NCBI GenBank assembly: GCA_000002445.1
Contig: CH464491.1
Coordinates: 1,824,001 to 1,888,000 of the forward strand
Origin: Trypanosoma brucei
Lineage: Eukaryota
Reading direction: 5' to 3'
DNA: 64,000 nucleotides
Position numbers and translations under genes: made by a program
Shown: positions 10,079 through 58,059 of the stretch, piece by piece
Position numbering within the stretch: the first letter of the stretch is position 1
How the letters are laid out: the number at the start of each line of letters is the position of its first letter
Notes under the pieces: model-generated
What the model was told of the DNA's origin: nothing
Seen by the model: only the letters and a program-made list of their open reading frames with translations
Databases searched by the model: none

Positions 10079-10080
<2 letters not shown>

Positions 10081-26728: not shown

Positions 26729-26753
26729 ACACACACACACACACACACACACA
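26729..26753. repeat. (AC)12 microsatellite
   Basis: Read directly from the sequence. Confidence 0.95.
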
Positions 26754-27582
26754 TAAATAAATAAAGTTCGTATTTCCTATCGTCAAAACCACAATCTAAA
26801 CGATGATCCTCGAACTGACGCATTCAACTCACTCACCGTCATGGCTATTTTATTAAAGAGTAAAGTCCTAATCAGTAGTCCTCTTTTTTTCGTAATGGCA
26901 GTTTGCCGATAGAATAATTAAGTCTTGACGTTTAAACTGAAAAGACGTCTAACAAAGTTTCAAAAGGACAATATATATTTATATTCGCTTTTGGTTGATT
27001 TCGATAATAATCACTTTAATACCAACACGGACCATTGTGCCCGGTAATGGCTGTATCCTTTACATCACCACGATTTTTATCATATGTAAGAATTTTGCAA
27101 CAAAAAGTACAGGGAGTATTACCCGTACAAAGTTATGGGGTCATACACAAAATTTTCCACTGACGAACTTGTCCCAGTTAAGTTTCAGTAAGCCGCATGA
27201 GTGCCTAAACCCTCCCTGTTGCCACTATCACACAGACTTAATCATACGAAGCAGAAGTGAGGTAAGTTTTCTGTGATGTTGTGTTTACCTTTTCCCCATT
27301 CCCTCTTATCTCCTTCCTGTGATATGCCAGTCAGAGAACAAAAGAGGGGCTTCAAAGACAACCAGGCGGTTTTGTTACCACAGATTTCTTCCACAATGAC
27401 AAAACACGTTTAAAGTCTTTGAGAGTAGCGACGCACGCCCGCTCACGACCAAATACAAAAAACTTTCGATAATGGCCACGGTTCTTACCCTGTATTGCAT
27501 CGGAAGCTGGCAATAAAAGTACCTTCCTTAACTTTCTGACGGTTACGTAGGCCACCATCAACACTGGGGAGAAAGAGGAACC

Positions 27583-27615
27583 ACATACACAGACACACAC
27601 ACACACATACACACA
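27583..27615. repeat. Imperfect (CA)n microsatellite
   Basis: ccacatacacagacacacacacacacatacacaca. Confidence 0.9.
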
Positions 27616-31756: not shown

Positions 31757-34564
31757 TCAGAACACAAATACACTTTGAGCATCGCCAGTTTGATCACTGG
31801 GTTGTGACGCTGGTTTCATCTCGACTTTCCTTTTCCTCCGTTCAGTTGGCGTTTGGAAAGAGGTGACAGGGGTTGCGCCGCCCACGGAAGCGGCCGCAAC
31901 TCTACGTACCTCTTCTTCGGCCCCTGGCGGCTGTCGGGACCCGACAGCCGCTTTCTTCGCCGCTCGTGGCGTCTTCCCCTTTTCCTTGCTCTTGCTGCGC
32001 CGCGCTGTTGAGGCGGCGGGCCTTTCCTTTGACACCTTCGCCCTCTTCGTCGGTACGGCCCCGTCTTCTTCGCTGCCCCCTTCTCGTTTTCTCTTTCGAC
32101 CCTCAGCAGTTTCTCCCGCGTGCACTGGGGGTTCGTTGTTGGGTGCAGGCCGCTTATCCGCAGACGAAGGATCAGACGCGAACAGTTGTCGCCGTTCTTT
32201 CCGAACTTCCGCGAGGCAGCTGCTCAGCATCTGCCCGTCCTCTGGTTTTGCCGCTCCCAACGACACAATATCTTCCGATTCAATGGCAAGTCCTTGCGCG
32301 TGACCCCGAGCACCTGCAACACCTCTTGAGTTTGTTTGACCGCCGCACTTAACCTGAATTCTGCCAAGTCGGTCAACGCCCTGCACCACTATGTCATCTA
32401 AAAAGCTTCCCGCACAAACCGCATCAATGTCGACGTCATGTACGAGCACATCGTCGTGAAGACCAACATCCACAAAGGCACCGAACGTTGTGACACAACG
32501 CACCACCCCCGCAAGTTTGTCCCCACATTTAATGTCTGCCGCTCTTGGGGCGCGACGGAAATGGCCGGCAAAAGGCAGTTCGGAGCGGGGATCTAAGGCC
32601 GGTGTTGCCAGTTCATGGGCCAACAGTTCAAGCGTTGCCTTACCACATCCCAGGCGCTCCGTCAGTTCCTTCAATTCATTTTCCTTCATGTCAAGAAGTT
32701 TACGCCCAATGTCGATCCGCTGTTGTCCCTTGAACAACTCGATCAGCCTCTGCACAATGGGATAGGACTCGGGGTGAATGTTAGAGCCGTCCAGTGGGTT
32801 GGTGGAATTAGGAAACCGAAAGAAACCTGCAATTTGCTTGTAAACAGTTTCAGTCATCCCTGGAACGCGACGAAGGTCTTCCCGACTCATGAGCTTTTTG
32901 GCGTGACGCGCGAGAACAATTTGGTCTACCATGCGCTTTGTCACACCCGGTATTTTTTCCATCACGTAGCGGTTTGCAACCATTGCGTTAACACCAACTG
33001 ATGCTACGCACGACTCCACCACTCGATTCAATGAGCGCGTCAGTTCGACCTCACTGATGTCATGTTGGTACATACCAATGCCCATTGATCGAACCGGAAC
33101 CTTTACCAGCTCACTCAACGGATCGATGACACGCCTGCCAATGCTCACCGCTCCGCGGTACATTGGGTCGAGGGTGGGAAACTCTTCCTTCGCGACATCG
33201 GAAACAGAGTAAACACTGGCGCCTGCTTCACTGACAATAGCATACTCGACGCTCAGGTTCTTCTCCTTGATGGTGGCGGCGACAACATCGGCCACGTCCC
33301 CCGAGGCAGTCCCGTTTCCGATAACAATTTTGTTAAGATTCATTTTCCCGACCGACCCACCGATATATTCTTTCATCTCATCCTTCTTCGACAAGGTGCA
33401 GCAAAAGCACGCAATAACACCGCCGTTTTCGTCTAGTGCAACACATTTAACACCCATTTTGAAGCCCGGGTCCATCGCAAGTATTCTCGCATCCCGCATT
33501 GGGCGCTGGAGGAGGATATGGCGAAGGTTGTGTGCAAAGACAGCCAGAGACTCTTTTATTGCACTCTTTTTGAGATCGCGCCGGACCGTCGCGTGCGTTC
33601 GCCGCACCACTTGTTTGCATGCCTCCTCAAGGCACTTCTGCAGAAGCTCCCCAGCTACTGAAGAAGTAGGTCTCCGCGCTCCATAAAATTTCCGACGAGC
33701 CCACGCAAAGAAAACATCCTTGTCCCTATTGCTTTCGGCCATTTTAACTTTCAACACACCCTCACTTTCGCCACGTTGCAGTGCCAGGAAATGGTGTGCA
33801 CTAATCCGTTGCACCGGCCACACCTTGCCACCATACCACTCAAAATGCTTCTTATTCTTTTCAAAAGAATCGGAATTCGCTGACTTTCCCCCAGGCTCCC
33901 CAGCAAGTGCACAACTAATGGTGCCGCTCCGCCTGCACTCCGTTAGCATGATCTGCCGTACCTCATCGCAACGCTGCACCTCCTCCACCACAATTGCCCT
34001 TAGCAACTTTTCACCGTCGTCCACGCAGCGCAGACGCTGCTGCACATCGTCGATGGGATCCGTCGTATACAACAATTTTTTCGCGAGAGGTTCCAGTCCC
34101 GCCTCACGCCCCCTATGTGCCAGACCCGTCTTCTTTTCTTTAAACGGCTCCCACGCATCCTCTAGCTGGTTCAAATGAACTAGCTTCTCAAAGGTCTCTT
34201 GAAGTTCCCTCGTAAGGAGGTTACGTTTCTCCAAACTTTTTAACATGAATTCGCGGCGTCGTTGCACTTCCCGTAGCTCCTCCGCCATATCAAGCAGCTG
34301 CCGGATTGTTGTCTCGTCGAGGTAACCTGTTTCGTCACGCCGATACCGCGCAAGAAAGGGCACAGTTGAACCTTTCTTAGTCTGCTCCACAACATAACAT
34401 GCAGAGCCTTGGGGTATGTTTAGCCGCTGTGAAATAATGCGGTACAAGTGTGTTTCGCTGTTGCCCGCCTTCTGTGCCTTGGTGGACATCGCGCGCAACG
34501 AAAAGGTAACCGCTAGTACTGACCTTGGGTGCGCTGGTACAATTCTTTTAACGTACCGCAGCAT
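31757..34564 (-). CDS. Tex / SPT6-like transcription accessory protein (HTH, YqgF, HhH, S1 domains), bacterial type, with a possible organellar presequence
   Basis: The N-terminus FLARYRRDETGYLDETTIRQLLD matches the conserved Tex motif FIARYRKExTGxLDE. A C-terminal S1 domain is present (GDKLAGVVRCVTTFGAFVDVGLHDDVLVHDVD), followed by a K/R/A-rich tail. The total is 935 aa. Confidence 0.8.
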   Translation of the reverse strand: MLRYVKRIVPAHPRSVLAVTFSLRAMSTKAQKAGNSETHLYRIISQRLNIPQGSACYVVEQTKKGSTVPFLARYRRDETGYLDETTIRQLLDMAEELREVQRRREFMLKSLEKRNLLTRELQETFEKLVHLNQLEDAWEPFKEKKTGLAHRGREAGLEPLAKKLLYTTDPIDDVQQRLRCVDDGEKLLRAIVVEEVQRCDEVRQIMLTECRRSGTISCALAGEPGGKSANSDSFEKNKKHFEWYGGKVWPVQRISAHHFLALQRGESEGVLKVKMAESNRDKDVFFAWARRKFYGARRPTSSVAGELLQKCLEEACKQVVRRTHATVRRDLKKSAIKESLAVFAHNLRHILLQRPMRDARILAMDPGFKMGVKCVALDENGGVIACFCCTLSKKDEMKEYIGGSVGKMNLNKIVIGNGTASGDVADVVAATIKEKNLSVEYAIVSEAGASVYSVSDVAKEEFPTLDPMYRGAVSIGRRVIDPLSELVKVPVRSMGIGMYQHDISEVELTRSLNRVVESCVASVGVNAMVANRYVMEKIPGVTKRMVDQIVLARHAKKLMSREDLRRVPGMTETVYKQIAGFFRFPNSTNPLDGSNIHPESYPIVQRLIELFKGQQRIDIGRKLLDMKENELKELTERLGCGKATLELLAHELATPALDPRSELPFAGHFRRAPRAADIKCGDKLAGVVRCVTTFGAFVDVGLHDDVLVHDVDIDAVCAGSFLDDIVVQGVDRLGRIQVKCGGQTNSRGVAGARGHAQGLAIESEDIVSLGAAKPEDGQMLSSCLAEVRKERRQLFASDPSSADKRPAPNNEPPVHAGETAEGRKRKREGGSEEDGAVPTKRAKVSKERPAASTARRSKSKEKGKTPRAAKKAAVGSRQPPGAEEEVRRVAAASVGGATPVTSFQTPTERRKRKVEMKPASQPSDQTGDAQSVFVF

Positions 34565-35460
34565 AATCGAGGAGGAAAGGACGTTACACGGCGGGGAGCA
34601 GATCGATCAAACAAATGACACAGGGTGCTTTCCCTCAGCCGAAGGGATACGCACAAAATACAAATGTGTGCGTGGTCGACAGCCTTAAAACTATTAATAT
34701 GATCTTCCCCTGGTGTTACTTATCCGTCCTGTGGAGGCGTCCACGCCAGCCTACCCTTCAACAAACAGAGTTCACCTGCCAGGGAGGAAACGAAATAGAA
34801 ACAAGAACTCCAGTGTTTGATTCCTTTGGTTTGATTTGTTTGCACGAGGATAGAACAGGGGTTAAAAGTAGCAATGAGCGCACGCAGAAACATTAGTCTT
34901 ACTTCGTACAAACGGTCACCCCCCCCTCACACACCAGCTACATTGAGGGTTACATCGGAAAAAGTACAGCTGCGGTGCCACCAGGACACCCGGAAACCGA
35001 TGGCGCGGTAGCATCTTGAGGGGAAGAGGAGGCACAGTGTTAAAAAACGCACCACAAAAAGGGGAATAATGTGCCAGTAGGATCCGGTCGCAACGTGAAA
35101 CTGAAGGCGACGCCCTCCACTTCACGCCCCAGCACCTCCCTCCCCCAAATAAAAAACGTTCGGTAGGCTTGCTACACGAGGTAGGCAATCTTTAATCGCT
35201 TCGGAAATTGCAAACACACCCACACTCTCGTGGGGACCGACGGCGGAGAGTTTACACACTGCGATAACCTGCAGGTGATGGTTAAATTGAATGATGTTCA
35301 GCAGGGAATGGGGGCAGTGATGAAGTCCGGTACCGCAGTAGATATAGAGAACGTCATCGCTTTGAGAGATTTTAGGTTGTTTCCCAACTGGATCCCCTTA
35401 TCCACAAGCATATTACAATTCCCCACCATTAAAGAAATGCAGAACCCACCCAATTCTGCC

Positions 35461-37275
35461 CTACAGACCATCTGCCGTCATGCCCAGCACGTCCAGTTGG
35501 ATGATGTCTGTTCTACCATTCAGCAGCTGACCTAAATGTGGAACGGTCCTTCCCATATCCCCATGAACAAACTCCTTCACATAGGTGCCAGCCTGAGTCT
35601 CTAAGTCCATCAGGAACCAGTGAGCATTTAACGGCACCAATTGAATACGGTGAATAACTCGGTTACGTGACTGCAACGATCGCCTATGTAGTACACGCAC
35701 GGGGGTGCGTTGTTCGACAACTAGGTCACACACAGCGTTCGTTGCCTGAAAATGTCTATCTTTCTCCGGCTCAGGTATTGATCTGCTGCACCACACAACA
35801 CAACGGTACCTCTTCACCTTGCTCTGCGAGTGATGAGCCATGCGGAGAAGTATACCAGCATCTGTTATGCGTAATTCTGATATTTCCACGCTTCCCTCCT
35901 CGCTGGTATTAACCACAGCTTCCAGAGATGCCAAATCCTCCGGTGACGCGCGTTCCCTGCTGGGCGATATGACTTCGAGAACGAAGGGCCGCCCACTTCC
36001 GAGCATACGTACATCCACATCTTCCCGCCCAGCGCTATGAAACTTGTACCGTCCGTAGCCGAAGACGCGTTCGGATGCCGTGCGGTGCGGATTCAGCTTT
36101 TCCACTCCGGGATGTTGTTGGTCAGCTTCCAACACCTCACGCCGGGGACGCTTCACGCTTTGGCATGCGGCATCTTTCATTGGCCCTTCCCACGGTAGGG
36201 ACGTTACACCTTCGGGGAAAAAGAAGGGCAACACCGGATCGGCAATCGCTTCCTGTAGAGAGTACGAGCCAACACGTTTTCCATTAACAAACCAAGGGGA
36301 CTGTGAGAGATCCCGCCTCGTTTTGCGGTAGTTTCCGATCAACATGATATTGGAGTGCTGCAGGGAACAAGCCAGTGTTGCTGGTTCACAGATCAAAAAA
36401 TTGCCACTCCGTCCCACATCAGCAGCATCTCCGGTCCAACATCCAGTAGCATTCAAGTAAGGAAACACGTAGTCATATATAACACTGTACGTCAGCACCC
36501 CTTCGCTCCGGTTGCTACAGTACTGCAGTGGTACCGCAGTCCCGTTGGTAAGGTTCTTTAGTTGGTGATGCTCAGCGGCTATGTCCGCAACGAGGCCCTC
36601 GTTATCGGGGCTGTATACAAACGCCTGTTGTACCTGGGGTTCAGTTACACCGCCGTCACTTCCGGCACGACGAGTGATCTCCTGCATGTAGGCCTTATAC
36701 CCAACAAGCGTCTTCACTTTGGATAACTCAGAGTGCTCACGCACAAGGTACTGCAGAACCCGCGCCCGCAGGTCACTCATGTAGAAATCCTTGAAGTTGG
36801 CGTGCTCTTCTGGCACCAACGCTGTGGGATTTGGTTTCTCATTCTCCCTTCCACTTACACCGTGAAAGATTGCAGCCACTGCCAACCACAAAAATGATAC
36901 GCTCCGGTGAACACTCACATTCACGGAAAGGCGGCTCGAGTCGATGAACCTACTTGTGCGAATTGTCGCGGCCACAACTGGGGCGTGGACGGCATCCAAA
37001 AACTGGTAAAGTCCCAAGCACGCACAGCAGAGACTGTGCCTCTCATCGGCCGCCGTAGTGCTCTCTCCGTTATCTTTTGCCTTTCGAAAGTACCGCAGAG
37101 CACTCTCCGCCGTTTCGTAAACAATTGAAAAGCGTGGGTGATACGTTTCGTCGAGGAGCCTACCGTTCCCACAGTGGTCAGAGCGCGTCTGTACTGGGGG
37201 CTGCGGTGGAGGTACCTGATGCATGATCGACATCCGAAGGGCACATGAGTGACACAGCACATTTTTTTGTGTCAT
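35461..37275 (-). CDS. Pus10-like tRNA pseudouridine synthase (putative)
   Basis: An N-terminal Cys pair-of-pairs (CHSCALRM ... CCACLG) and the segment AGREDVDVRMLGSGRPFVLEV. I recall the latter as the catalytic-Asp region of Pus10-family synthases. This was not verified. Confidence 0.5.
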   Translation of the reverse strand: MTQKNVLCHSCALRMSIMHQVPPPQPPVQTRSDHCGNGRLLDETYHPRFSIVYETAESALRYFRKAKDNGESTTAADERHSLCCACLGLYQFLDAVHAPVVAATIRTSRFIDSSRLSVNVSVHRSVSFLWLAVAAIFHGVSGRENEKPNPTALVPEEHANFKDFYMSDLRARVLQYLVREHSELSKVKTLVGYKAYMQEITRRAGSDGGVTEPQVQQAFVYSPDNEGLVADIAAEHHQLKNLTNGTAVPLQYCSNRSEGVLTYSVIYDYVFPYLNATGCWTGDAADVGRSGNFLICEPATLACSLQHSNIMLIGNYRKTRRDLSQSPWFVNGKRVGSYSLQEAIADPVLPFFFPEGVTSLPWEGPMKDAACQSVKRPRREVLEADQQHPGVEKLNPHRTASERVFGYGRYKFHSAGREDVDVRMLGSGRPFVLEVISPSRERASPEDLASLEAVVNTSEEGSVEISELRITDAGILLRMAHHSQSKVKRYRCVVWCSRSIPEPEKDRHFQATNAVCDLVVEQRTPVRVLHRRSLQSRNRVIHRIQLVPLNAHWFLMDLETQAGTYVKEFVHGDMGRTVPHLGQLLNGRTDIIQLDVLGMTADGL

Positions 37276-45815: not shown

Positions 45816-48800
45816 TTAATCCCTGTTAAGGTCAACGTTTTGTGTCGGAACTATACCCGCTTGTGCGTTACCCTCTTTGCGAAATGCAATCGCCCTCATT
45901 GCAAGCAGGTAGTCTTTCTCGCCGGACGAAATTGTTTTATTGAAGCCACGGTCATTATCCAAAATCCCTTGGAATGTTGAGCAAGCCTTGGGAACAACAA
46001 CAAGTCCACACTCCCGCCCTACAGCAACGAGAAAATCAACCGGAACGACGTTGACTTTTTTGAAATGACCCTTCTGCACCGAAAGCAGAAAGTGATTTCC
46101 CACCCTTGGTAAGAAATCTGCGGCCCACTCAATCGCAAAAACACCGTTACCAAAACTGCCTTTAGCAAATAATGGCTCAACATCGAAGAAGCAACCTATA
46201 AATACCCCACCGGGAATTAGGGCATTGGCCACGCTTTCGATAAGCCGCATCGCGGTGTACTCTGTTCCGAATGCATGATGAAATCCGGCAAACGCAGTTA
46301 TGACATGAAATTGTCTTGGGTGGATCTTCGTCAAGTGGTGACTCCAAAAGTTTGCAGAGAACACATCGGCACAGATAACGTCATAAAATGACATCTCTGT
46401 CATTTCATGGCGTAATGAAGAAATGAGCTCGCTCGCAGCATCCACGACACTCGACTTCAAATCGAAACCAATGTACCGAGCCGTTTTGTTCCTTATCCAT
46501 TTTCTTAAAAGGTATCCCCCACAGCAAATCTCAAGCACGTCATTCGTGGCCACCTTAGGAGTTATTATATCTATGAGTAAAGATGCGCACCGGGTTAAGA
46601 CATGGGTTGCAAACGATGCATTTTCCGGTGGGGGGGCCAAATATCCAATTTCTGCTTTCAAGTTAGTAGCAGAAAATGTGCCCCAACAGTTATCACAATA
46701 GAAGTGTTGGTTTAGGGTGTCATTCTTTCCCATAACACAGAACCGACCACAGTATAGACAATCCCCATGGCCTGTTTCGCTCCAGCACTTTTTGCACCAA
46801 TACGCCATGTGCTTCACGTTCATTCTTCCTACGTCACTTACGTTATGACACCTTCCACACCTGTATTTGGCAGCGTCAAGTAGCCACAGCATTTCCTTAT
46901 GCGTCAATCCAGGCACATGAACAAGTCTCTCAACGATGTCGAACGTATCTGGCTGGTACCCCATATCCGGACCACGGCCCCGAAGCAACTCCCACCAATG
47001 AGAACCATCGTCACTTCGCTTTAGGACGCATTCGATGACGGAGCCGCTCCTAAGCTCGGGGGCAGAGTCCCATATATAGTCAACATATTCATTGTTATAA
47101 GACATGGTATTCTTACCGCTGTCAGCCACAAGAAGCCACGCCCGTTTTACATCTCCACTCTCTGGATGGACATTTTCAACGTCACCAACAATAAACACCG
47201 CAGTTGTCGAGGATGTAGGGATCCAGCTATAAACCGAGGTATCTTTCTCTTTGCAGTTGGTAACGTGAGGCACAAAAACTAAGCCCAATGTTGGATGTCC
47301 TGCCGGTGGGTTTCTAAGTAAGCGCTCAGCTTGAGTTGAAACGGTATATATTGTCCGGACAATGGCAACCCGATTGGGGCTCGTGTGTGGACGGCTTGCG
47401 TAATTGTCAAGCAAACACTTTTCCACGTAAAACCACCGCTCTGGAAAGGGTAGCTCTCGCACGTCAGCTTCTTCAAAAGATAGAATATCCTCCACTATTA
47501 TGACATAATCCAGGTAACTTCGGTAGGAAGAAGCAACGACAGCAGAAAAAACGCTATTTTTCGCCCTTCCACCCAGCCCCCGAAAGTAATCTGGAAGTGC
47601 AGAAATGCTTCCCGTCTTAACGTCTACACAAAAAACATCCCCCTCGCTATTTGTAATCAGTAGTACATTTGCTCCCACGGTCTTACTCCGTACATAGTAC
47701 GGGTATTTGGAAAATTCTTCTGCTGCCGCAGCAAACGTCATTCTGTTGAGTGGGACTGGGACACAATTAACAGGAAGCCACTTCTCCGCTATTTTGTGAG
47801 CGTATTCGTATTGAGCAAACGTAATGGACCTTCTGAAGTGCTGGGGAACATAACCAAAGCAAGTGCTCGACATGTCGAATGACCGACCCGCAGCCAGCAC
47901 ATAGTTTAGCGTCGCATTCAAAAACCAACCGTCTGCTTCCGTGCACAGCGTCACACCAAATTCCTTTCGCAACGTTGTATCGCTCACACAAACACCCGAA
48001 ACGCTGGCTGCCGTATCATCACACAGATCCCCAACGAATGCCAGCATATCAAACACTGGACAAACTAACGTCCCTACGTGGTGAGAATAATCGATATTAA
48101 TGTTAACATGAACAACAGTTGGCTTCGGCCAGTCATTTTGTTCCTTCAGAAGTGACAAAAAATGTGTTTCGTATTCTTTTAAACTGGATAATGTACGTGA
48201 AACATCACATGGATACAAAGAAACAAAAAATGACCGATCAGGCTTGCCATCTGATAGCAACTTCTTGCTTGCATCATCCCCTATCGAGACAACCACGGTG
48301 AGAGGAACTTGCATGCTACAAGCAAATGATGCTACGGCATTTACCTCTGTAATACGGAGGGGATGAAAGTTAATTCCCAATAGAGCCGTCTGGAAAAAGT
48401 GAACATCTTCCGGTTGCGGGATGATTATCGACACAAAAAAGTAGTGGCGGTGGGTGCCAGCGTATCGCCTACTTGATGATGTTCCACAGAAAGATCCCAC
48501 GTAACCCACCGCCAAAACCCGAGGATCCTCTCGAAGTGTCCAGAAGTAGTCGTCCCAAGCAGCTTTCAGCTGAGGTGCAACCTCAGCACCGCACTCCTTA
48601 GGAACCTCAACACGAACCAGAAAACCAGGTGCCGCGCTAATGGCACATATGTCGGACACAGTGCCTGTAAGTGACAAAATGGAGCGGGATAGTAGAATTC
48701 CAGTTGGTGCCTCGGTGCCAGAACAATATCCAGCATTCTTCACATTACTGAAGAATGTGGTAGTAAATACCTGTAAAGCATCATCGCCTGGGCCTCCGTG

Positions 48801-48989
48801 GGAATAACTACAGAGTAACCTCTTCGTTAAGAGTTGAAATAATCCACTTGTTTCTTCGGATTCTTTCGTAGCATCATATTTTCTGATGGTTGGTAACATT
48901 AAAAGATACCGGTAAAAATTGCTCCTGTGCGGTGCTCCGTGATCTCCAGCGGCTTGGGGGACGAAGGACCTGGCATTTGCGTTCAACAT
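45816..48989 (-). CDS. Cgm1-like bifunctional mRNA capping enzyme (putative guanylyltransferase region plus C-terminal cap guanine-N7 methyltransferase)
   Basis: The C-terminus has VLEICCGGYLLRKWIRNKTARYIGFDL, which matches the cap N7-MTase AdoMet motif VLDLGCGKGGDLxKW. Upstream segments resemble nucleotidyltransferase motifs IV-VI (GLVFVPH; ...VLKRSDDGSHWWELLRGRGPD ~ WxxxRxRxD). The 1057 aa length and domain order fit the trypanosomatid Cgm1 described in the literature. A Cys/His cluster sits between the two domains. Confidence 0.55.
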   Translation of the reverse strand: MLNANARSFVPQAAGDHGAPHRSNFYRYLLMLPTIRKYDATKESEETSGLFQLLTKRLLCSYSHGGPGDDALQVFTTTFFSNVKNAGYCSGTEAPTGILLSRSILSLTGTVSDICAISAAPGFLVRVEVPKECGAEVAPQLKAAWDDYFWTLREDPRVLAVGYVGSFCGTSSSRRYAGTHRHYFFVSIIIPQPEDVHFFQTALLGINFHPLRITEVNAVASFACSMQVPLTVVVSIGDDASKKLLSDGKPDRSFFVSLYPCDVSRTLSSLKEYETHFLSLLKEQNDWPKPTVVHVNINIDYSHHVGTLVCPVFDMLAFVGDLCDDTAASVSGVCVSDTTLRKEFGVTLCTEADGWFLNATLNYVLAAGRSFDMSSTCFGYVPQHFRRSITFAQYEYAHKIAEKWLPVNCVPVPLNRMTFAAAAEEFSKYPYYVRSKTVGANVLLITNSEGDVFCVDVKTGSISALPDYFRGLGGRAKNSVFSAVVASSYRSYLDYVIIVEDILSFEEADVRELPFPERWFYVEKCLLDNYASRPHTSPNRVAIVRTIYTVSTQAERLLRNPPAGHPTLGLVFVPHVTNCKEKDTSVYSWIPTSSTTAVFIVGDVENVHPESGDVKRAWLLVADSGKNTMSYNNEYVDYIWDSAPELRSGSVIECVLKRSDDGSHWWELLRGRGPDMGYQPDTFDIVERLVHVPGLTHKEMLWLLDAAKYRCGRCHNVSDVGRMNVKHMAYWCKKCWSETGHGDCLYCGRFCVMGKNDTLNQHFYCDNCWGTFSATNLKAEIGYLAPPPENASFATHVLTRCASLLIDIITPKVATNDVLEICCGGYLLRKWIRNKTARYIGFDLKSSVVDAASELISSLRHEMTEMSFYDVICADVFSANFWSHHLTKIHPRQFHVITAFAGFHHAFGTEYTAMRLIESVANALIPGGVFIGCFFDVEPLFAKGSFGNGVFAIEWAADFLPRVGNHFLLSVQKGHFKKVNVVPVDFLVAVGRECGLVVVPKACSTFQGILDNDRGFNKTISSGEKDYLLAMRAIAFRKEGNAQAGIVPTQNVDLNRD

Positions 48990-50611
48990 TGCTACCGCTT
49001 ACTTACTTTCCCCTTTTAAACTTATCCACTCCGATCTAACCTTTGATTTTTTTTAAAAAAACCGACACCGTTATCGTTTTCCCCTTACTAACAGTATGAA
49101 GGTAAAGAAGGTGGACTGCATAATTTTGAAATAACGTGGCGACGAAAACGAACAAGCTCCCAATATATAATGGATATTCATCACAAGGAGGAGAAATTGT
49201 ACCCAGATGTAAGCAGCGGTCAATGTCCACGAGCGCAAGGGCAGCAACTACCTGTCCTTTAAATAATGAGGATCTGCGTGTACTCTTCGGCGGCAAGGGA
49301 GCAAGCACAGCTCCGACACACCAAGGGAATAGCTCGCATAACCGGTTACGTGCGCTAGTGTACTGCCTAAGGTAGACAGAGTTTTCCACACAGAAAAAAA
49401 GAGTATGGGCTTAGAATAACCTCACCGTGGGGTGACTTAGGGAAATCAGGAGGCACCACAAACACCGACAAAACTTCGCGTATTTACTCGGCCGCAAGGC
49501 GCACAAGACCACCACTAGCCCAACCGTTGAAGTGGATCAAGCCAACTCAAGAGTCTTGAATAGCGAAACAAGCAACGTAGCCATAACACGGGCAGTTTCC
49601 TTCGCCGCCGCTCCGGGAGAAGGGTATAAAGTAGCCGCAGTAAAAACCCGACACTGGCAAAACCAGAGACGCATCCCCGGCTTCTGCAAACCTTAAAGGG
49701 AGACCGAAGGGTGCGGGGCGTAGAAATCCAGCACATACATATACGACCACCCACCTGTACCCCGACTCACAAGCGGTCCAAAACATCACAACGTCGCGCT
49801 CTGCTGTCCTGAACACTCGGTAACACACACTTCCCCGCCAACGAATACCCACCCCGCGCGAGTCAACCACCGCACCAACTCACACAATGAAGCAGCAGCA
49901 ACACGCTTCCAGGTCAGCCAATCGGTGGGCACGCGGACCCTCAGAACACACCCATCACCCCAAATACGCTGGCCACACGGAGCTGCACCACTCGGACGCT
50001 CACTCAGCACCGAAACGGCCGCACCAAGAATGCGTAGATTTTTGTTTGTTACTGCGCGTGTTTTGGAAGTGCGCACAGGGGGTCCGTCTCTCGAGTCAGT
50101 ATCTCAGTAAAGAATCGGCTGTACGGGCTTCGGGGAGTTGAAACCACCGCCCTTCCACCTCAACACAAGCCTGGTGGTGAAGCAAGCTGCTGGCGCTCGA
50201 CTTTCCCCTTCTATCGCAGGTTAGTGAACTCAGGCAGCGGCACCAAGGATGGAAAAGAAGCAACATCTTCCCCCTTTCTTCAAAATGTATTCCTTCAAGG
50301 ATCGACAACTTGCCACGCTGCAGATCCTGCGGGTCAAACGGACGGTGAATAAAGGAAAGTGGGATATACTTCCCTAACGGACTTTGTTGCCTGGCCCCTT
50401 TTTCGCCCATCTTTTTCGATTTTTTTTTTTGGAAGCAAAAACGGATGCAAAAAAAAAAAAACAGGTTGGAACTCGCGGGCACCGAGACATTCGAAAAGGG
50501 GAAAGATGTTTTGCCAGCAGATACCGAAAATATCCTCAGAGGTCGAAATCCGCTACTGAGCACTTTCCTCCAAATATAATGACGAGAATTATCTTCGCTG
50601 CTGCGCCTGCC

Positions 50612-50682
50612 GCGCCGTTGGTCTAGTGGCATGATGGTACCCTCCCAAGGTATTGACCCGGGTTCGATTCCCGGACGGCGCA
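50612..50682 (+). tRNA. tRNA-Gly (anticodon CCC)
   Basis: A 71-nt cloverleaf: acceptor GCGCCGT/ACGGCGC, D-arm with AGTGG, anticodon stem GTACC/GGTAT with loop CTCCCAA (anticodon CCC), T-arm CCGGG-TTCGATT-CCCGG, discriminator A. It is near-identical in pattern to eukaryotic tRNA-Gly-CCC (GCGCCGCTGGTGTAGTGG...GACCCGGGTTCGATTCCCGG.CGGCGCA). CCA is not encoded. Confidence 0.9.
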
Positions 50683-50684
50683 TC

Positions 50685-50689
50685 TTTTT
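50685..50689 (+). terminator. Pol III oligo(T) terminator immediately 3' of tRNA-Gly
   Basis: TTTTT begins 3 nt after the discriminator base. Confidence 0.6.
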
Positions 50690-53600
50690 CGCGTCACTCC
50701 TCTTTTCGAGCCTTCAACCGGATTGTGCGGCTTTTCTATCCACACCTCGAAAATGTATGGCGAACGCTGTCGCCACCATCTTCCCAAACGTATGAACGGG
50801 AAAAACAACCAAACAACCAACATATGAGAGTCGCTTCCTCCACTCCACAATTACGGCCCCTTCCGCACATTTCGCTTGCGGAATCGCCAAACAGCACACC
50901 ACCAGCGTCTATCCCAGACCTTTCCAGCCCATCGTTTTCTCATTCAAGGTATATCGGCATTGTTCCCATACTCTGCCTGTGGCACCCTGCTTGGTGCCAT
51001 GTTCCTTAGCGTACTCGCAAGCCGCTATCTCTATCTTGTAGCAACCACCAGTGCATTCAGCTTTTCGGGCAGTTTAAAATTTTCAATTGCCATCTTCCGC
51101 CGAGCCACGCGTTCCGCGCGACGAATACTCTTTCTTGGGCACAGGAGGGTGTGGAAAAAGAGAGTTCCAATGGGGAGGCAGTGAATTCCGAAGAATGCAA
51201 AGCCAATGGCATGGTTGTGTAGGCGCGAACACCGTCTTTATCGATGGAGATGGCATTGCAACCATTTCCCCCTTACGTGAAGATGGAATAGCGGGGAGGC
51301 CCCTACAGACACCATATTAACGCCAAGGTGGCGCCTATAGCCTCGTCATTGTGCTTGGCTCTTGCGCTCTTTCAAGGGTGAGGCCAAGCGCCGGGGTGCT
51401 TCCTAAATATTTGCATTTGAAGCGTGCAGGTGCTCAACAGCCACTAGGCAAGTGGAAAGAAACGATGGCATCGGCTCTCGGGAGAGAGTGCGGTTGCCTT
51501 TCAGCCATGCTGAGCTTATGGGCCTGCTTCTTCAGGTGCCTGTCCGCTGCTGTTATTATTTAGGGCGAAAGTCAGGCGGAGCTTAGGTTCGATTCTCAGT
51601 GGATAGCAATGGAATGCCTCTTGCCCCTTTCAGAAGAAAGACCGAGCTCTGGCAAGGCACCTGCTGCGATGCCGGGGCTGTTTTTTGCACTTTTTGTGAA
51701 GCGTATTTGGTCCTGAAGAAGGAAAGACACGTTAGCAGCAAGACCAAAAAATATCAGAACAACCAAAGGCCTTCAAAAGAAGGGGACGTGTCCGCACCCT
51801 TTTTTTTAAAAAAAAGAGAAAAAGGATAAATGCCTCAAAGCCTGCAACAAATTGGAGGGTGCAAAAGAACATCTGCTAAATCAATGCTTGGCCGGGGGGG
51901 GGGTAGAAGGGCACGCCCGTCCAAGCCTATTTTCAAAAACCAGTTGCCGTTGCGAAACCAACGCTGGTTACCATGTTCCACGCAAGGCCCGATGACAACG
52001 GGCGCGGATGCAAAGACAGTGGGCTATGATATCTATTCAAAAGCCCAAAGCTGCGCCGCTGACTCCGTTGTGAAACGGCGCTTGGAATGGGAAACATGAC
52101 TCGCTAACGAATGGGTAGGCGACAAGAAAGTCGCCACACTGTAAACCATACCCGGCGCCGAGCGTGAAAAAATATAAAAGTGAGGCGCCGGTCTGGAGTT
52201 CGAAACCGAACCGAAGTAGTAACCGCCGTTAAATAAAGCTCGAAGCAAGCATCCGTAGGGACAGCTATTGAGTCCGTTTGTGCCGTCATAGACGTCTACT
52301 ATTCGCATGGAATAGCACCGATTGGGCAACTCGGCGGCAAATATGCGTCTAGGAAGTTCATCCACGGTTTTTAATATTACCGTAGGATGACGGATGGGAT
52401 GGGCAACGCAATTTCCCCCTCAATCCGCATGGAATCAATGAAAGCAACTGGCGAAGGAAATGAGTTGGTGCCATCTTTCTGGATTCAAGAAATGCCGGAT
52501 ATGGAAGCAGATGCTGAAAATTGTGCGAATTGCAGGAAAAAGGGAACAAAAATTTGCAAAGCTAAAACAAGTGCTGAAGGAGGTGGCCGCAGAACAATGG
52601 AGGAGGTAAGGGCTAGAAACAGAATTCAAAAAATAAATCAAGGGACCGGAACCTGATAAACTCGCTGCTTGTTCTGAGGTTGTTGAGCACGCCCATTGTA
52701 GTGACTAATGGTCTGAGGTTATCAAAGAATCAGCGGGCGATTGAGCTCTGGGATACATGGAAGGGAAACCGAGAGAATACGATACGAATGGCATCACGGG
52801 CGTTATTGCTTGGAGCAGCGGGGAGGTTTTAGGTCCATACCATTTGCCATGGTAGAGTTCAAACTAGTGTTTGGTGAATTCCCCACCGGCATCGCTTCTG
52901 GTTGGAAAAAAAAACAAACAAACATAAGGAGGGATTGTAGAAACTTGGCAACAACACGGGCACTCGCAGCAGTGATCTATAACTTGTGCTGGAAACAAAA
53001 CCTGATACCGCAGCTGCTGCGCAGAAGAGCATCATTTCTTTTTCATTGAATCCAAACAAACCAAAAAGAAAGGGGTGATGCCCCTCCGTTTTCCAACCGC
53101 AGCAGGTAAGGATCCGCAGACTGAAGGATAGAGAAATTTCAAGCATGTCGAGATTACCCTCTTCAGACAAGGCCAGCGAGCTTCAGACGTGGACTCTCAG
53201 CATTAGACGTCAGAGCGTGACCACCTGCTTTAATAAACAGAGGGGGGGGGGAGGAACGAGAGAAAGCGGTTACTGTGTTTATTGATTATCCCCGATGGGT
53301 TGGCACAGTGTAACGTGACTGCGTCATCGCGGCACTAAATCGCTACAAAGTGGTTCCGTTCCTGACGGAATGGAAGAGACGGTTCCTCCCCAATTCTGAG
53401 GTCAACATGGGGGCGAACAACACGCAGTCAAAAACTAGGCCATTTTAACATGCGGCGGTGCTGCGGGGATCTGCCCTGCGGTGAGCGCCGTCTCTCGTCG
53501 CGATGAAATCCCTACGCAAACGGTTGAATAAAGCTTACGAAACTAGTCATGATTTCCTTTCGAACGGCTTCATCACCTTTGGCACACACACAGATTTTAA

Positions 53601-54141
53601 AAAAGAAATGTCGAGGACACCCCTGAGCAGGGAGTTGGCCGTCACCCCCAGTGGTCTAGAGAGCACCATGCTCAGTTGCCTGAGAAAACGGAATATGCAT
53701 ACTTTGGGGCCAGGCATCTTTGCACCCTCAACTTCCACATAAATAACAAAACAAATAATGAAAAGGAAAGGCCCCAAATTACCGGGGATTCCATGCAGCT
53801 GGAAGGGGGGATGTGACCCCACACGCCCAAACTGCGGGAGATAAAATCGACAAAGTTGACCCCGCGTTTTAGGCATCCCTATTGGAGCCCCTCGTGGGCG
53901 GAGAAAAATTCGACCACTCGCTTCTAGCGCAAAAGGTTGATGCGCCACAACAATATTTGTACGAATGGCTCCGATCCCCCACGCCTCACACGTCTACTCT
54001 ATGAAATTACCTTTGTTTTGTCGGAATTCATCATTGCGGCGCGGCCGAACGCACGACGCAACAGCCGTTGTTGGACAAGTTGCACCGGGTGAGTGGCTAC
54101 GAAACGCGCAAACGACCAAACAACCCTCTTGGGCCTTTTTG

Positions 54142-54186
54142 TTATTATTATTACTATTATTATTATTATTATTACTATTTTTTTGG
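54142..54186. repeat. Imperfect (ATT)n repeat ending in T7 G6
   Basis: gttattattattactattattattattattactattttttt gggggg. Confidence 0.9.
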
Positions 54187-54741
54187 GGGGTCGACCTCAA
54201 CGTGTCACTGGGGACGGAACAGAATTTTGGGACGTTTTAGGATCAAACATCCGCCCATGCGGCACCCATTCCATAATTTCAAGACACACTCGGTTTTGTT
54301 TGAGAGCTCTTGAGTGTGTGGATAAAAAATTTCCCACTGCCGTTTTCCCGAACTCGTCACAGCTGAGGCCTTAGAGATCTTTACGATCAGTCGCTACACC
54401 TCTGCTATCGAGTGCGTTCGGTGTGGTTGCCGGCTCCGCCTTGAGAGTCCACATTCCACGTCCTCGACCAATCAAAAAGTATTGGTGACTCCTTGTGGAA
54501 CCGGTGCATCTTTTTTTTTTTCTTCAGCAGAAGTAAAAGCTTTTGTCCACCATACAACCTGTTGCCCCAATGAAACATTTACCAGATCATCGCCCAATTT
54601 CTTTAATGACCCGCGGGGCCGCAGGTGGCGTAAGCAAGCCGTCGCTTTTCTGAACGTTTAAACTCTCTGTTTCGACCGGAAAGTTGTAACTCATTGGTGG
54701 ATTGACCAACGACCCACACGACGCATCAGCCGCTGGCGGTG

Positions 54742-54767
54742 ATATATGTGTATATATATATATATAT
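54742..54767. repeat. (TG)2(TA)11 microsatellite
   Basis: Read directly from the sequence. Confidence 0.9.
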
Positions 54768-55459
54768 TTCCCTCATCCATAAAAAATCCACATGAAGGAT
54801 TGATGTAAAAAAAAAAGCAAAGCAAGGGATGACCTTTTCCTTGCATGCGGCTTCCTTAGGGGAATTCACCTTTACAACCCCTCTTTGCCTATGCCTGGAG
54901 TGGCTAACTTGTCCTTCGTCAAAGTCCGTAGCCGCGCAGAATGTTATTTTTAGTACCAACGGTGCGGTTAACAGTGATGAAAGGTTTCCGCAAAACAGAT
55001 GTTGCTTAAGCTGCTGGCGCTAGGGGAAATAAAGTTTAAGCACTTCCTCAGTTTCCACAGCGCTAACATCTCCGTCGCTTTTCTCATTTGCTCAGTGTGC
55101 CTATCATAGGTGGTGATGTACTGAAGCGGCACCAAGCAGTTTCACTACCCGCGCTTGCTTCAGACCGTAAGTACGGCGTCTAAAAAAAAAAAAAAGTAGC
55201 TATAGCAAATAGATCATCGGAAAGAATGGTCAACATAAGCGATATTTTTAGCAGCACTCTTGGTGGGTCAACAAATGGGACTCCGTCGCACCTTGTCGCG
55301 TTCCGCCCTCTCGCGTTGAACGGCTTTTAGCGTTCTGTTACCGTGCATGCTTATCCTTAAAAACCCTTTCTTTCCCTCAGACCTTCGGTAATTCATATCC
55401 TTACGTTAATCGCTTCCTCCTTCCCACCTCTTTCTTGCGTCTACCCTTCACGGGGCGCT

Positions 55460-57511
55460 TCATGTGGATTCACTTATCTGCACAACGAACTTTCCATAAA
55501 AATTTTGTGCGAGGTTGTTTCGAAGCCGCGGGTCCTGCTTCAGTTTCTCTCTCACTTTTTGCAGCAGCAAGTCATCCATCTGCAGGAGCTTTTGTAAGAC
55601 AATGGAGCTGCTCTGCTGCGTCGCCATTTGAGCCAGACCAGAAAGCACAAGTTCCACCACACGACCCTTGCCTTGCTGATCCAAACTGGCCATTAGCGTA
55701 CACAAGACATGCTGAGAGCCTTTTTCACATGCAAGCGAGACGAAGTTACGAAGCAACACATCGCAGATGTCGCGACTAGCGGGGATGGCCTTCTCCACTA
55801 CAAATCGTCCATTGTTGTGCCTAGTGAGTGTCACGACGTGTGCCCGGAGAGCGTTGCAAAGAGCCGTGTGCGTGGAGGCTCCCACATGGTCAAACAGACA
55901 CACCACAACATGGGAGGCGTAGACATGCTGGCACATACGTAGCAGCTCATCGGCCTTAATTAGGCTACGGGCAATTTTCTCCGCCCCAAACACTTTAATA
56001 TATTCTTGAACCATCACATTTCCAATGGAGTCATACATCAAGGCTGTGATGTCGCGTTCGATGGCACTGACGAGTAATTCTCCTACTTTAGACTCCTTAA
56101 CTTTGCATAGTGGTAGAAGCTTCCGCACGACCAAACTTCCTCGTGCATCACTTAACAAGTCCCCCACATTACTTCGTTTGACGAGCATCGCTGCAACCTC
56201 CTCAACTATAGCCTTGTTGGGTAGTGAATTGGCCGTCACGACGACGCAAACAACTACGTGCACAGAAATGGGATGGTCCACCAATGAGGATAACTGTGGG
56301 CCCAACAATTGCAGAAGGTGTTTAAAATTTGTCACCGCTTCCTTTTGTCCGGTGTGTGGGATAAGGGAAATAGCGGCCTGAACCACGAAGTTGGCATCAC
56401 CCGAGCTGCACATTTCCACAATGTTTGCTTCACAAGCCGATAACACAACATTAAATATCTCCGCAGCCTCGTTAGACGCGAGCTCTGTCAAGTCATGCGA
56501 TAGAATCTCCTGCAGAAACTTGCACCCTCGTTTGCTACCAAGCAGCGCCGCAACGTCAATGCCTCTTAGGACGGCGGCGCGGCTGGGACAATGAAGGATG
56601 AAAGTTCGCATGACTGGTGAAGCTACGGGGTCATTGGCAAGGTAAAGCAGCACATCCTGTTTCCCATCCTTATGCTCATTCGTCTTCCCCTGCTTCTTTT
56701 TCCCACCCCCGCCGCTGGTTTCGACGAGGCCCAAGGCATCCTTAAGCCAACTTACCGTTTCGGTTGGAAAGCGCTCGATGAGCCGACGGATGGTAACGGC
56801 TGTGTGGCGGTTGCGGAGTTTCACTTGTATCAAGTCTAGTGTCTCGGCCCCTTGGCACAAAACGTGCAAAGCCCTTCGCTGAATTTCGTGGTCTCCATTC
56901 AGCACCAACGAACTCATCACCTTGCATGCAACGTAATGCTCGTGGAGGGCCTCATTTTCTTCGAACAGACGCATCACAACATCAAGTACCATCAACTTCC
57001 TCTTTTCATCGCAGCTTGGAGCGCCCAACGCGTTCAACAGAGCACACACCACACGACCACCGCACTCGTCTTGTACAAGATCCTCAAGAAGTGTGAGCGG
57101 TTCTTCACCTTCATCCTCGTCTGTTGTAGCCGCCTGGCGATCAAGGGAAATAAACACATCTAAAATGTGGCTCAAGGTTTCTTCGTCGAGTTTCCCGTCA
57201 TCTCGCGGTCGCTTGCGCGATACTCCGGCCTGCTCTTCTCCCGCGCTGGTCTCGCAGAGTAAAAGTGAGCAAAGATCATCGCATGCAGCAGGAAGCCTAC
57301 AAGCCTGAGCGAATTGGGCAATGAGCAGCGCCTTCTTTTCCTCCGACACGGCAGCCCTTTGCGGTGTTGTGCGTTTCACAAGTCGTTCGGTGGTGGCGGC
57401 AAAGTCGCCCCGCCGCACGGCTTTCGCAACTATTGACTTTCGCTCGCGATTCTCACGTGTGTGACGCACCTGCCGCTGCTGTGAGCGCTGTAGCGTTCCC
57501 TTCTTGCCCAT
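55460..57511 (-). CDS. Pumilio/PUF-family RNA-binding protein; the ORF extends to 57670 but the likely start is MGKKGTLQRSQQ
   Basis: Multiple Puf-repeat-like units with the hydrophobic-x-x-Q/E core (GNVMVQEYIKVFG, GSLVVRKLLP, ANFVVQAAISLIP, GRFVVEKAIP, GSQHVLCTLM, SSIVLQKLLQ, GKFVVQISE). The N-terminal region is basic. Confidence 0.6.
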   Translation of the reverse strand: MGKKGTLQRSQQRQVRHTRENRERKSIVAKAVRRGDFAATTERLVKRTTPQRAAVSEEKKALLIAQFAQACRLPAACDDLCSLLLCETSAGEEQAGVSRKRPRDDGKLDEETLSHILDVFISLDRQAATTDEDEGEEPLTLLEDLVQDECGGRVVCALLNALGAPSCDEKRKLMVLDVVMRLFEENEALHEHYVACKVMSSLVLNGDHEIQRRALHVLCQGAETLDLIQVKLRNRHTAVTIRRLIERFPTETVSWLKDALGLVETSGGGGKKKQGKTNEHKDGKQDVLLYLANDPVASPVMRTFILHCPSRAAVLRGIDVAALLGSKRGCKFLQEILSHDLTELASNEAAEIFNVVLSACEANIVEMCSSGDANFVVQAAISLIPHTGQKEAVTNFKHLLQLLGPQLSSLVDHPISVHVVVCVVVTANSLPNKAIVEEVAAMLVKRSNVGDLLSDARGSLVVRKLLPLCKVKESKVGELLVSAIERDITALMYDSIGNVMVQEYIKVFGAEKIARSLIKADELLRMCQHVYASHVVVCLFDHVGASTHTALCNALRAHVVTLTRHNNGRFVVEKAIPASRDICDVLLRNFVSLACEKGSQHVLCTLMASLDQQGKGRVVELVLSGLAQMATQQSSSIVLQKLLQMDDLLLQKVREKLKQDPRLRNNLAQNFYGKFVVQISEST

Positions 57512-58059
57512 CGCGATTTCACCTTCGATATTTGTGCATGTTTGTATAGAGGGGATGGGGAGAAGTGCGTGAAGCCATGAAGGGGAAGTAAAGAAACAAT
57601 GCAACGAACGGATTGCAACCCAAAAGGGGAAAATAGACGGAGGTGGATCGGCGGGTTGGGGAATCACCAAATCAGTGTTGATGGTAAATGGTACAAATGC
57701 TCACTGTGCCAGGTTTAAAAATAAAAGAGGATATGCGGGGTCCAACCGCAGTCGCCTCGGATAAGGCACTTTAATATTAAACGCAAACATCGAAAAGGAA
57801 GGGGTACATGAAGTAACGCCCAGACCCAACAAAGGGAAGAGTAAAAGCGTCGCTGAAACGCAAACTAGTGCTTACTTCCATATTACATTCTCCCTCAGAA
57901 AATAGTTTGGTCCTCTACAGACCATGTATTCCAGAAGGGGAGCCGATCGTGCGTGGCACCACCGAAGAATGAAGACAGAAGCCATAGAATAATCTATGAA
58001 ACAAACACCTTTATTTAAACACGTACACGTGTGCATGTGCGCATGAGCGCGCTAAACCA

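Follow-up and report, generated by a model that had tools for sequence, protein, structure and literature searches.

A 6,470-bp stretch of Trypanosoma brucei chromosome 11 (48990-55459), lying between minus-strand genes on both sides, is very probably a head-to-tail boundary of two minus-strand polycistronic Pol II units, built around a tRNA-Gly(CCC) gene. Direct observation covers the tRNA with its boxes and terminator, the lack of genes, the GT-richness and the synteny, while the transcription start and termination calls come from the literature, i.e., from published supplementary tables rather than tracks. An earlier note on this DNA had proposed a head-to-tail boundary, with termination at 51000-55400 and re-initiation at 49000-50600, and this proposal agrees with Kolev 2010, with Staneva 2021, and with a GT-rich patch described below. 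The boundary interpretation is right but already published for this locus, and the feature is real and ordinary.

The window, i.e., the whole stretch of 64,000 nucleotides that was analyzed, corresponds to positions 1,824,001-1,888,000 of T. brucei TREU927 chromosome 11, and window coordinates are converted to chromosomal ones by an offset of 1,824,000. According to the window's ORF list, all large ORFs flanking the gap lie on the minus strand. Of the 17 gaps delimited by the 18 large minus-strand ORFs taken for this comparison, this one is second in size, most of them being 146-1,216 bp. On its downstream side, the encoded protein matches a T. brucei TREU927 protein at 100% identity and Pfam PF03291 at 49.2 bits; because of the gene order, we take this methyltransferase gene to be Tb11.02.4550. 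On the upstream side, the protein matches Pfam PF22493 PUF_NOP9 (43.9 bits), and Tb11.02.4570 is PUF10 (PMC2830943). The part of the gap that lies between PUF10 and the tRNA is presumed to begin as the PUF10 3'UTR and to continue as a termination zone up to the tRNA, a division that we infer.

Table 1. Features of the gap and its flanks, in window coordinates.
Feature	Position	Strand	Remark
Methyltransferase gene, first of downstream Pol II unit	45816..48989	-	1057 aa, mRNA cap guanine-N7 methyltransferase domain
GT-rich patch, sense strand	49400..50050	-	probable core of Pol II re-initiation region, by composition
T11 + A13 homopolymer pair	50420..50461	.	150-190 bp upstream of tRNA
Position required for tRNA-companion small RNA	50462..50517	-	rejected as gene
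tRNA-Gly(CCC), Tb11_tRNA_Gly_1, Pol III gene	50612..50682	+	ARAGORN, Rfam
Pol III terminator T5 of tRNA-Gly(CCC)	50685..50689	+	starts 2 nt after gene
ORF-free stretch 3' of PUF10	50690..55459	-	presumed PUF10 3'UTR, then Pol II termination zone
PUF10 (Tb11.02.4570), PUF/NOP9-like, last gene of upstream Pol II unit	55460..57670	-	

The tRNA-Gly(CCC) gene was called by ARAGORN as a cloverleaf and by Rfam (RF00005, 62.3 bits, E 4e-11), and it runs antisense to the minus-strand ORFs at 45816-48989 and 55460-57670, in keeping with the earlier description of a plus-strand tRNA-Gly(CCC) opposed to its flanking genes. Its box B, GGTTCGATTCC (50661-50671), is an exact match, and its box A, TGGTCTAGTGG (50619-50629), has one mismatch against the consensus TRGCNNAGTGG. 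The T5 terminator, which had also been correctly recognized, is followed downstream by a back-up T4 run (50703-50706), and its length fits the mean T-run of 4.89 in T. brucei tRNA genes (PMC2695483). With its cloverleaf, A and B boxes, and T-run, this is a canonical eukaryotic tRNA gene with a type 2 Pol III promoter. It is a single-copy, already annotated gene, catalogued at chr11 1874612..1874682, and it alone among the chr11 tRNAs falls outside the 3.45 Mb clusters (PMC2695483 Additional file 1). A box-B-like site at 51586-51596 with apparent acceptor-stem pairing (51540-46 / 51600-06) was considered as a decayed tRNA and rejected: the covariance model was silent, the fold z was -1.13, the box-B count equaled that expected by chance, and the site did not resemble the Leu, Ala or Gly tRNAs of related loci.

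Published data place both ends of a transcription boundary at this tRNA. In Kolev 2010 Table S14, based on 5'-triphosphate RNA-seq, a minus-strand unit running from Tb11.02.4550 to Tb11.02.4500 is listed as "next to tRNA," and the preceding unit ends at Tb11.02.4570 (PMC2936537). In Staneva 2021 Table S8, the Lister 427 Chr11_core tRNA-Gly(ccc) overlaps the termination region sTTR_4 and is bound by TBP, TRF, and ELP3b, i.e., by three of the eight RNAPIII/TTR-associated factors (PMC8559703); the tRNA may therefore be a weaker roadblock than most tRNAs. The Lister 427 tRNA at 1,863,938 would be the counterpart of the TREU927 tRNA at 1,874,612, since the two share the same anticodon, the same length, and a similar position, and since it is the sole Gly(CCC) in the chromosome core. 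More generally, tRNA genes have been found to coincide with head-to-tail termination regions that are followed by start regions (PMC2695483, PMC8559703).

Directional initiation by Pol II in T. brucei is driven by GT-rich elements (Wedel 2017, PMC5579346). On the minus strand, the 500-nt segment at 49501-50000 contained 65% G+T (z = 2.86), and the best 400-nt segment (49626-50025) contained 67.5%, ranking 9 of 2544. The orthologous gene has an equivalent patch upstream of it in T. congolense (rank 2 of 459), T. melophagium (9 of 912), and Porcisia (1 of 912). Thus, a sense-strand GT-rich patch within the top 1% of segments lies between the tRNA and the methyltransferase gene in all four species, ∼0.4-1.2 kb from the ATG of the first gene, even though the tRNA is 6 kb away in T. 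congolense. As judged from sequence composition, 49400-50050 is probably the core of the region in which Pol II re-initiates, GT-richness being a soft compositional signal. In composition, the locus resembles the GT-rich dispersed promoters of Wedel 2017 (PMC5579346), with G+T enriched on the sense strand for several hundred bp ahead of a unit's first gene; the synthetic elements of that study, in contrast, carry long G and T homopolymers, which the patch lacks.

The arrangement of the tRNA is also kept in related species. A tRNA-Gly(CCC) in antisense orientation lies upstream of this methyltransferase gene in T. congolense, T. melophagium, and Porcisia as well; the T. theileri locus was left out, since N makes up 1,857 of its 2,952 intergenic bases. 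In Porcisia, the upstream gene lies on the opposite strand, forming a divergent strand switch, and the methyltransferase gene is therefore again the first of its unit. The orthologous gaps measure 7.9 kb in T. congolense and 2.4 kb in T. melophagium (6.5 kb in T. brucei), and DNA has therefore been gained or lost at the locus. When the gap was compared by blastn with those of T. congolense, T. melophagium, and Porcisia, the tRNA alone was conserved, and a MAFFT alignment of the 300 nt upstream of the tRNA across species showed no conservation beyond the tRNA. As a milder variant of the novel small-RNA reading given below, the antisense tRNA-Gly(CCC) may have been retained since the Trypanosoma/Leishmaniinae split through selection as a boundary element.

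Taking the published calls and the sequence features together, Pol II ending the upstream unit would run through the PUF10 3' region, from 55459 down to ∼51000, and would terminate in a zone overlapping the tRNA gene (annotated as sTTR_4). Transcription of the tRNA itself, on the other strand, would be driven by its internal A and B boxes and stop at the T5, and the Pol III complex together with its nucleosome-free region would form a physical block to Pol II. Pol II would then restart in the GT-rich region ∼0.5-1 kb upstream of the methyltransferase ATG (∼49400-50050), yielding the short unit from Tb11.02.4550 to Tb11.02.4500. The exact positions of termination and initiation within the gap are those that we infer.

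Two further suggestions of the earlier note, that long A13-14 and T11 runs act as Pol III stops and that the gap carries several GC-rich hairpins, did not hold. The runs exist (T11 at 50420-50430, A13 at 50449-50461, and A14 at 55182-55195), but their density is that of the background: homopolymers of 8 or more number 1.7/kb in the gap versus 1.32/kb in the rest of the window's non-coding DNA. A similar T10/T7...A15 pair is present at the same place in T. melophagium, whereas T. congolense has none. The T11/A13 pair is ordinary intergenic poly(dA:dT) and not a demonstrated Pol III stop. As for the hairpins, one perfect GC-rich 7-bp stem was found versus 0.82 expected from shuffles, and the gap contains no inverted repeat of at least 20 nt. 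A tblastn search of the gap returned one marginal K-rich match (E 8e-4), which was not collinear.

A boundary is not the only way to read such a gap. Its length, 6.5 kb where 0.2-1.2 kb is usual, would be explained if it hid the remains of a protein gene or of a retroelement, or else a gene for a Pol II long non-coding RNA, and its variation from 7.9 kb in T. congolense to 2.4 kb in T. melophagium fits this reading. We consider this unlikely. Stop codons number 71-80 per frame, ∼1 per 27-30 codons in all frames, which is the level expected for non-coding DNA, and the longest open stretch (205 codons) runs antisense across the tRNA. There was no Pfam match for the listed ORFs or for the open segments of 45 aa or more from both strands of the gap, none of five ATG-ORFs was present among 15 billion proteins, and tblastn of 154 open segments against the orthologous gaps revealed no conserved coding segment except frames crossing the tRNA. 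The stretch of ∼6.4 kb without credible ORFs that had been noticed earlier is thus confirmed as such. Internal repeats other than microsatellites were likewise absent from the gap, and published data report no novel poly(A)+ transcript at chr11 1,873,000-1,878,999. A lineage-specific lncRNA may lie in the gap. It is very unlikely, in turn, that there is no boundary at all, the gap being a very long PUF10 3'UTR plus intergenic spacer traversed by Pol II, with the tRNA as a passive passenger. Such a reading could draw on the 3.3, 3.7, and 9.8 kb ORF-free gaps of the window that contain no tRNA, on the existence of tRNA genes without a termination region, and on the few TTR-associated factors, three of eight, that this tRNA binds (PMC8559703). 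However, a start "next to tRNA" and a termination region at the tRNA come from two published data sets that are independent of each other, the position of the promoter-like GT-rich patch is conserved in four species, and in Porcisia a divergent strand switch leaves the methyltransferase gene first in its unit.

Divergent tRNA/small-RNA gene pairs of trypanosomatids were reportedly described by Nakaar in 1994. These pairs involve U6, U3, 7SL, U2, and others, and the companion gene starts 104-106 bp from box A of the tRNA (Rojas-Sanchez 2016, PMC4950102). That the tRNA-Gly(CCC) doubles as the promoter of a divergent Pol III small RNA (snRNA, 7SL or vault-like), at ∼50514-50462 or within 49400-49700, is highly improbable, and the earlier suggestion of unannotated snRNA or 7SL genes beside the tRNA found no Rfam match, conservation or structural signal. 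The geometry is formally possible: with box A at 50619, the 104-106 bp rule predicts a companion +1 near 50514 on the minus strand, a T13 run follows (50461-50449, minus strand), and T and A runs stand at the same distance in T. melophagium. However, only ∼53-56 nt are left between the predicted +1 and that run, and they are interrupted by a T4 (50497-50494) 17-20 nt from the +1. No companion RNA is known to be smaller than T. brucei U5, at ∼62 nt, and the candidate would be shorter. Rfam, one of the checks for which the earlier note had asked, recognized only the tRNA in the whole window at the gathering threshold and nothing credible besides it in the gap at E<=10; matches to MIR478, plastid UTRs, CrcZ, and STnc410 were far below thresholds and from irrelevant taxa. 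At the orthologous loci, Rfam likewise gave the tRNA only and nothing else credible, sequence conservation in the blastn and MAFFT comparisons was confined to the tRNA, and in Porcisia the upstream neighbor of the tRNA-Gly is a co-oriented tRNA-Ala. When five candidate stretches were folded, none was better than its shuffles: the 50462-50517 candidate gave z = +1.14 and -0.23, and the other suggested stretches gave -0.13, +0.33, and +0.96. A small-RNA gene at 50462..50517, with z = +1.14 and with neither conservation nor an Rfam match, was rejected, and the published poly(A)+ data hold no novel transcript at these coordinates either. Unannotated Pol III transcripts can still exist, as exemplified by sTTR6 (Staneva 2021, PMC8559703). 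Scarcely any credence is given to a lineage-specific Pol III transcript of ∼20-55 nt that would begin on the minus strand at ∼50514, at a distance of 105 bp from box A, with its end at either the internal T4 or the T13 run; if true, it would be a tRNA-promoted small RNA without a counterpart among known trypanosome snRNA, 7SL, and vault RNAs.

The head-to-tail boundary has close parallels. Non-divergent Pol II start regions of T. brucei were reportedly paired with single termination regions by Siegel in 2009. Among the non-divergent "next to tRNA" start regions and single termination regions of T. brucei, the locus is one catalogued site (PMC2936537, PMC8559703), the termination regions being those of the Muller 2018 annotation, which Staneva 2021 used (PMC8559703). 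It shares with the catalogued sites the same-strand arrays, a gap that houses a Pol III gene, a termination region over the tRNA, and a start region immediately beyond it as Pol II travels; nothing about the locus is different in kind. Its particulars are that the tRNA is single and not clustered, that the gap, at 6.5 kb, is unusually long, that the downstream unit is short, with ∼6 genes, and that only ELP3b, TRF, and TBP out of eight RNAPIII/TTR factors bind. As in the divergent tRNA/small-RNA pairs (PMC4950102), good A and B boxes face away from an opposite-strand stretch ending in a T run, but there is no recognizable, conserved or structured RNA at 104-106 bp. As far as the Leishmania major chromosome 3 site is described in PMC2695483, which cites Martinez-Calvillo 2004, a tRNA there lies between convergent Pol II units, at a strand-switch region in which they terminate. 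At both that site and this one, a lone tRNA gene marks the end of Pol II polycistronic transcription; by that account, however, the L. major units are convergent, with no re-initiation, whereas the T. brucei locus is head-to-tail, with same-strand re-initiation.

As a discovery the locus carries little weight, since the tRNA is annotated and the boundary appears in published lists of start sites and termination regions. What this analysis adds is that the tRNA/methyltransferase arrangement and the GT-rich patch are kept across four species. The locus is a clean single-tRNA example of a Pol III gene separating two Pol II polycistronic units, and the comparative data on tRNA retention and on the position of the GT-rich patch may aid the design of boundary deletions.

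The 6,470-bp gap between the methyltransferase gene and PUF10, i.e., the island, is truly without genes. Among the other 16 gaps between the window's 18 large minus-strand ORFs, on which this count is based, most measured 146–1,216 bp, and only an AT-rich gap of 9.8 kb was larger. Each of the six frames of the island held 71–80 stop codons in 2,156 codons, and the longest open stretch, 205 codons, ran antisense across the tRNA. Neither the listed ORFs nor any open segment of 45 aa or longer, on either strand, gave a Pfam match (E ≤ 0.1); when 154 open segments were compared by tblastn with the orthologous gaps in four further species, only tRNA-crossing frames matched; and 0 of 5 ATG-ORFs were found among 15 billion proteins. 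Together, these results bear out the ORF-free interval proposed in an earlier note from the sequence alone. The homopolymers and "several GC-rich hairpins" that the note had also singled out proved unremarkable: runs of at least 8 nt occurred at 1.7/kb, compared with 1.32/kb in the window's other noncoding DNA (2.7/kb with the AT-rich block counted in), a single perfect GC-rich hairpin of 7 bp was observed against 0.82 expected, and the island contained no inverted repeats of at least 20 nt. The presumed termination zone carries (TTA)n and (TA)n microsatellites at 54136–54177 and about 54745–54770, respectively. The window's largest gap, the ORF-poor AT-rich block (6541–16376; GC 0.31–0.37 vs. 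about 0.50 elsewhere), has low-complexity A/C-rich stretches and a single short tandem repeat at 11924–11974.

Both bordering ORFs belong to the minus strand, which holds 18 of the window's 19 ORFs of 200 aa or more. The methyltransferase ORF (1057 aa) is 100% identical to a T. brucei brucei TREU927 protein and encodes an mRNA cap guanine-N7 methyltransferase domain (Pfam PF03291). The other ORF (736 aa) matched PUF_NOP9 (PF22493, 43.9 bits), with orthologues at the equivalent position in T. theileri, T. melophagium, and T. congolense; T. brucei PUF10 is Tb11.02.4570, and its L. major orthologue is LmjF11.0470 (PMC2830943).

Using ARAGORN and Rfam (62.3 bits), we confirmed that the tRNA-Gly(CCC) seen by the earlier note, with its T5 terminator, is the sole tRNA in the 64-kb window. 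Its T5 run agrees with the mean of 4.9 for T. brucei tRNA genes (PMC2695483). The gene corresponds to Tb11_tRNA_Gly_1 (anticodon CCC; chr11 1874612..1874682, plus strand; Padilla-Mejia et al. 2009, PMC2695483, Additional file 1), which places the window at chr11 1,824,001–1,888,000. In that list it is the only T. brucei Gly(CCC) gene, and its locus (chr11-I) is one of 11 single-tRNA loci. A decayed tRNA at 51540–51607 (+), suggested by a box-B-like GGTTCGATTCT at 51586–51596 and apparent acceptor-stem pairing, was rejected; this stretch gave no covariance-model match, a fold z of −1.13, and no similarity to the Leu, Ala, and Gly tRNAs of neighbouring species, and box-B-like motifs were at chance level.

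Features of the boundary and of the orthologous tRNA genes (L002, L003, and L004 are the T. melophagium, T. congolense, and Porcisia hertigi loci)
Feature	Position	Strand	Remark
Methyltransferase gene	45816-48989	-	taken as Tb11.02.4550
PUF10	55460-57670	-	Tb11.02.4570
tRNA-Gly(CCC)	50612-50682	+	ARAGORN, Rfam
Box A	50619-50629		one mismatch vs. consensus
Box B	50661-50671		exact match
T5 run after tRNA	50685-50689		
Back-up T4 after tRNA	50703-50706		
T. congolense tRNA-Gly(CCC)	L003 3699-3771		
T. melophagium tRNA-Gly(CCC)	L002 8851-8922		tRNA-Leu(AAG) adjoining
Porcisia tRNA-Gly(CCC)	L004 8002-8072		tRNA-Ala adjoining

Putative Pol II start sites have been mapped by 5′-triphosphate RNA-seq (Kolev et al. 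2010, PMC2936537), and Table S14 of that study lists two consecutive minus-strand units on chr11: Tb11.02.5080 → Tb11.02.4570, classed as "Divergent", and then Tb11.02.4550 → Tb11.02.4500, classed as "next to tRNA". Since the remaining chr11 tRNAs all lie at 3.45–3.47 Mb (Tb11.01 region; PMC2695483), the tRNA of Table S14 is tRNA-Gly(CCC), and, from gene order, the methyltransferase gene would be the first of the unit starting there. In Lister 427, the presumed counterpart, Chr11_core tRNA-Gly(ccc) (1863938–1864008, likewise 71 nt), overlaps the annotated single termination region sTTR_4 and is bound by "only ELP3b, TRF and TBP" of eight RNAPIII/TTR-associated factors (Staneva et al. 2021, PMC8559703 Table S8), unlike the 53 of 69 tRNA genes that bind all eight (PMC8559703). 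As a general rule, where units run head to tail, termination has to come before the start region of the next unit, and regions of this kind frequently coincide with Pol III genes when they serve termination (PMC8559703 and others). The two tables independently agree with the head-to-tail boundary that the earlier note placed at this tRNA, and its polarity, with termination on the 51000–55400 side and re-initiation on the 49000–50600 side, is therefore also correct. The boundary is thus already known, and the sequence-only reading is real but partly over-read. The unit starting at the tRNA comprises only about six genes before an "Internal" start, Tb11.02.4485 (Kolev 2010 Table S14), expected at about 24000–35500 in the window, possibly in the 3.3-kb gap 24022–27351 or the 3.7-kb gap 28069–31756.

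The earlier note also raised the possibility of unannotated small-RNA genes beside the tRNA. In trypanosomatids, box A of a companion tRNA lies 104–106 bp upstream of the snRNA start (PMC4950102), so that with box A at 50619 a companion would start near 50514 on the minus strand. This leaves about 53 nt until a T13 run, and a T4 occurs 17–20 nt in. This stretch folded worse than its own shuffles (z +1.14; −0.23 with flanks), and the other suggested stretches gave z values of −0.13, +0.33, and +0.96. Rfam reported only tRNA-Gly(CCC) in the island, nothing at the companion position even at E ≤ 10, and tRNAs only in the orthologous loci; blastn against the T. congolense, T. melophagium, and Porcisia gaps, with MAFFT, detected no conservation flanking the tRNA. 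The Kolev novel-transcript list has no chr11 entry in 1,873,000–1,878,999, and the main text of Michaeli et al. 2011 mentions no small RNA for this locus. Given the lack of Rfam match, conservation, and fold signal, we reject an snRNA/7SL-type gene here and conclude that the companion gene is absent; a tiny lineage-specific transcript is conceivable but very unlikely.

We also analyzed base composition on the re-initiation side. On the minus (sense) strand, 49501–50000 reached 65% G+T (500-nt window, z=2.86), exceeded only in the low-complexity AT-rich block, and the best 400-nt window, 49626–50025, reached 67.5% (rank 9 of 2,544). In T. brucei, GT-rich elements on the coding strand have been shown to induce directional initiation by Pol II as well as H2A.Z deposition (Wedel et al. 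2017, PMC5579346). A GT-rich patch also lies between the tRNA 5′ end and the methyltransferase ATG, 0.4–1.2 kb from the latter, in T. congolense (rank 2/459), T. melophagium (9/912), and Porcisia hertigi (1/912), with no alignable sequence in common. By composition, the patch lends support to a putative start region.

In these three species, tRNA-Gly(CCC) is likewise antisense to and upstream of the methyltransferase gene, and in Porcisia the next upstream gene has the opposite orientation, which again puts the methyltransferase gene at the head of its unit. L. major chr11 has a corresponding cluster of 5S, Leu, Ala, and Gly genes at 156790–163129 (PMC2695483). In Leishmaniinae (L004 872–8202 and this L. 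major cluster), the tRNA-Gly locus lies in two mirrored Pol III clusters, with Leu(AAG) and Ala(CGC), plus 5S in L. major, bordering one opposite-strand gene of 541 aa without a Pfam domain. The gap is shortest in T. melophagium (2.4 kb), against 6.5 kb in T. brucei and 7.9 kb in T. congolense, where it is also ORF-free; in T. theileri, 1,857 of 2,952 intergenic bases (L001 7048–10001) are N. In T. congolense (L003 2139–10001), PUF10 is the nearer neighbour of the tRNA, at 1.6 kb, and the methyltransferase gene lies 6.2 kb away, which inverts the arrangement of T. brucei. The GT-rich patch there still precedes the ATG by about 0.5 kb, so that the tRNA and the presumed start region act as modules that can be separated. 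A T-run/A-run pair lies 150–190 bp upstream of the tRNA in T. brucei (T11...A13, 50399–50461) and T. melophagium (T10-T7...A15, L002 8923–9130), and T. congolense is without it; one possibility is that the pair helps to form the nucleosome-free region that has been reported upstream of tRNA genes, another that it is a low-complexity alignment artefact.

The island is thus very probably an ordinary, catalogued head-to-tail boundary. Pol II would terminate the PUF10 unit in a region extending to the tRNA, which Pol III would transcribe on the opposite strand, and would restart in the GT-rich region to give a short unit whose first gene is the methyltransferase gene. From the literature, we infer that the Pol III complex and its nucleosome-free region may serve as the roadblock.
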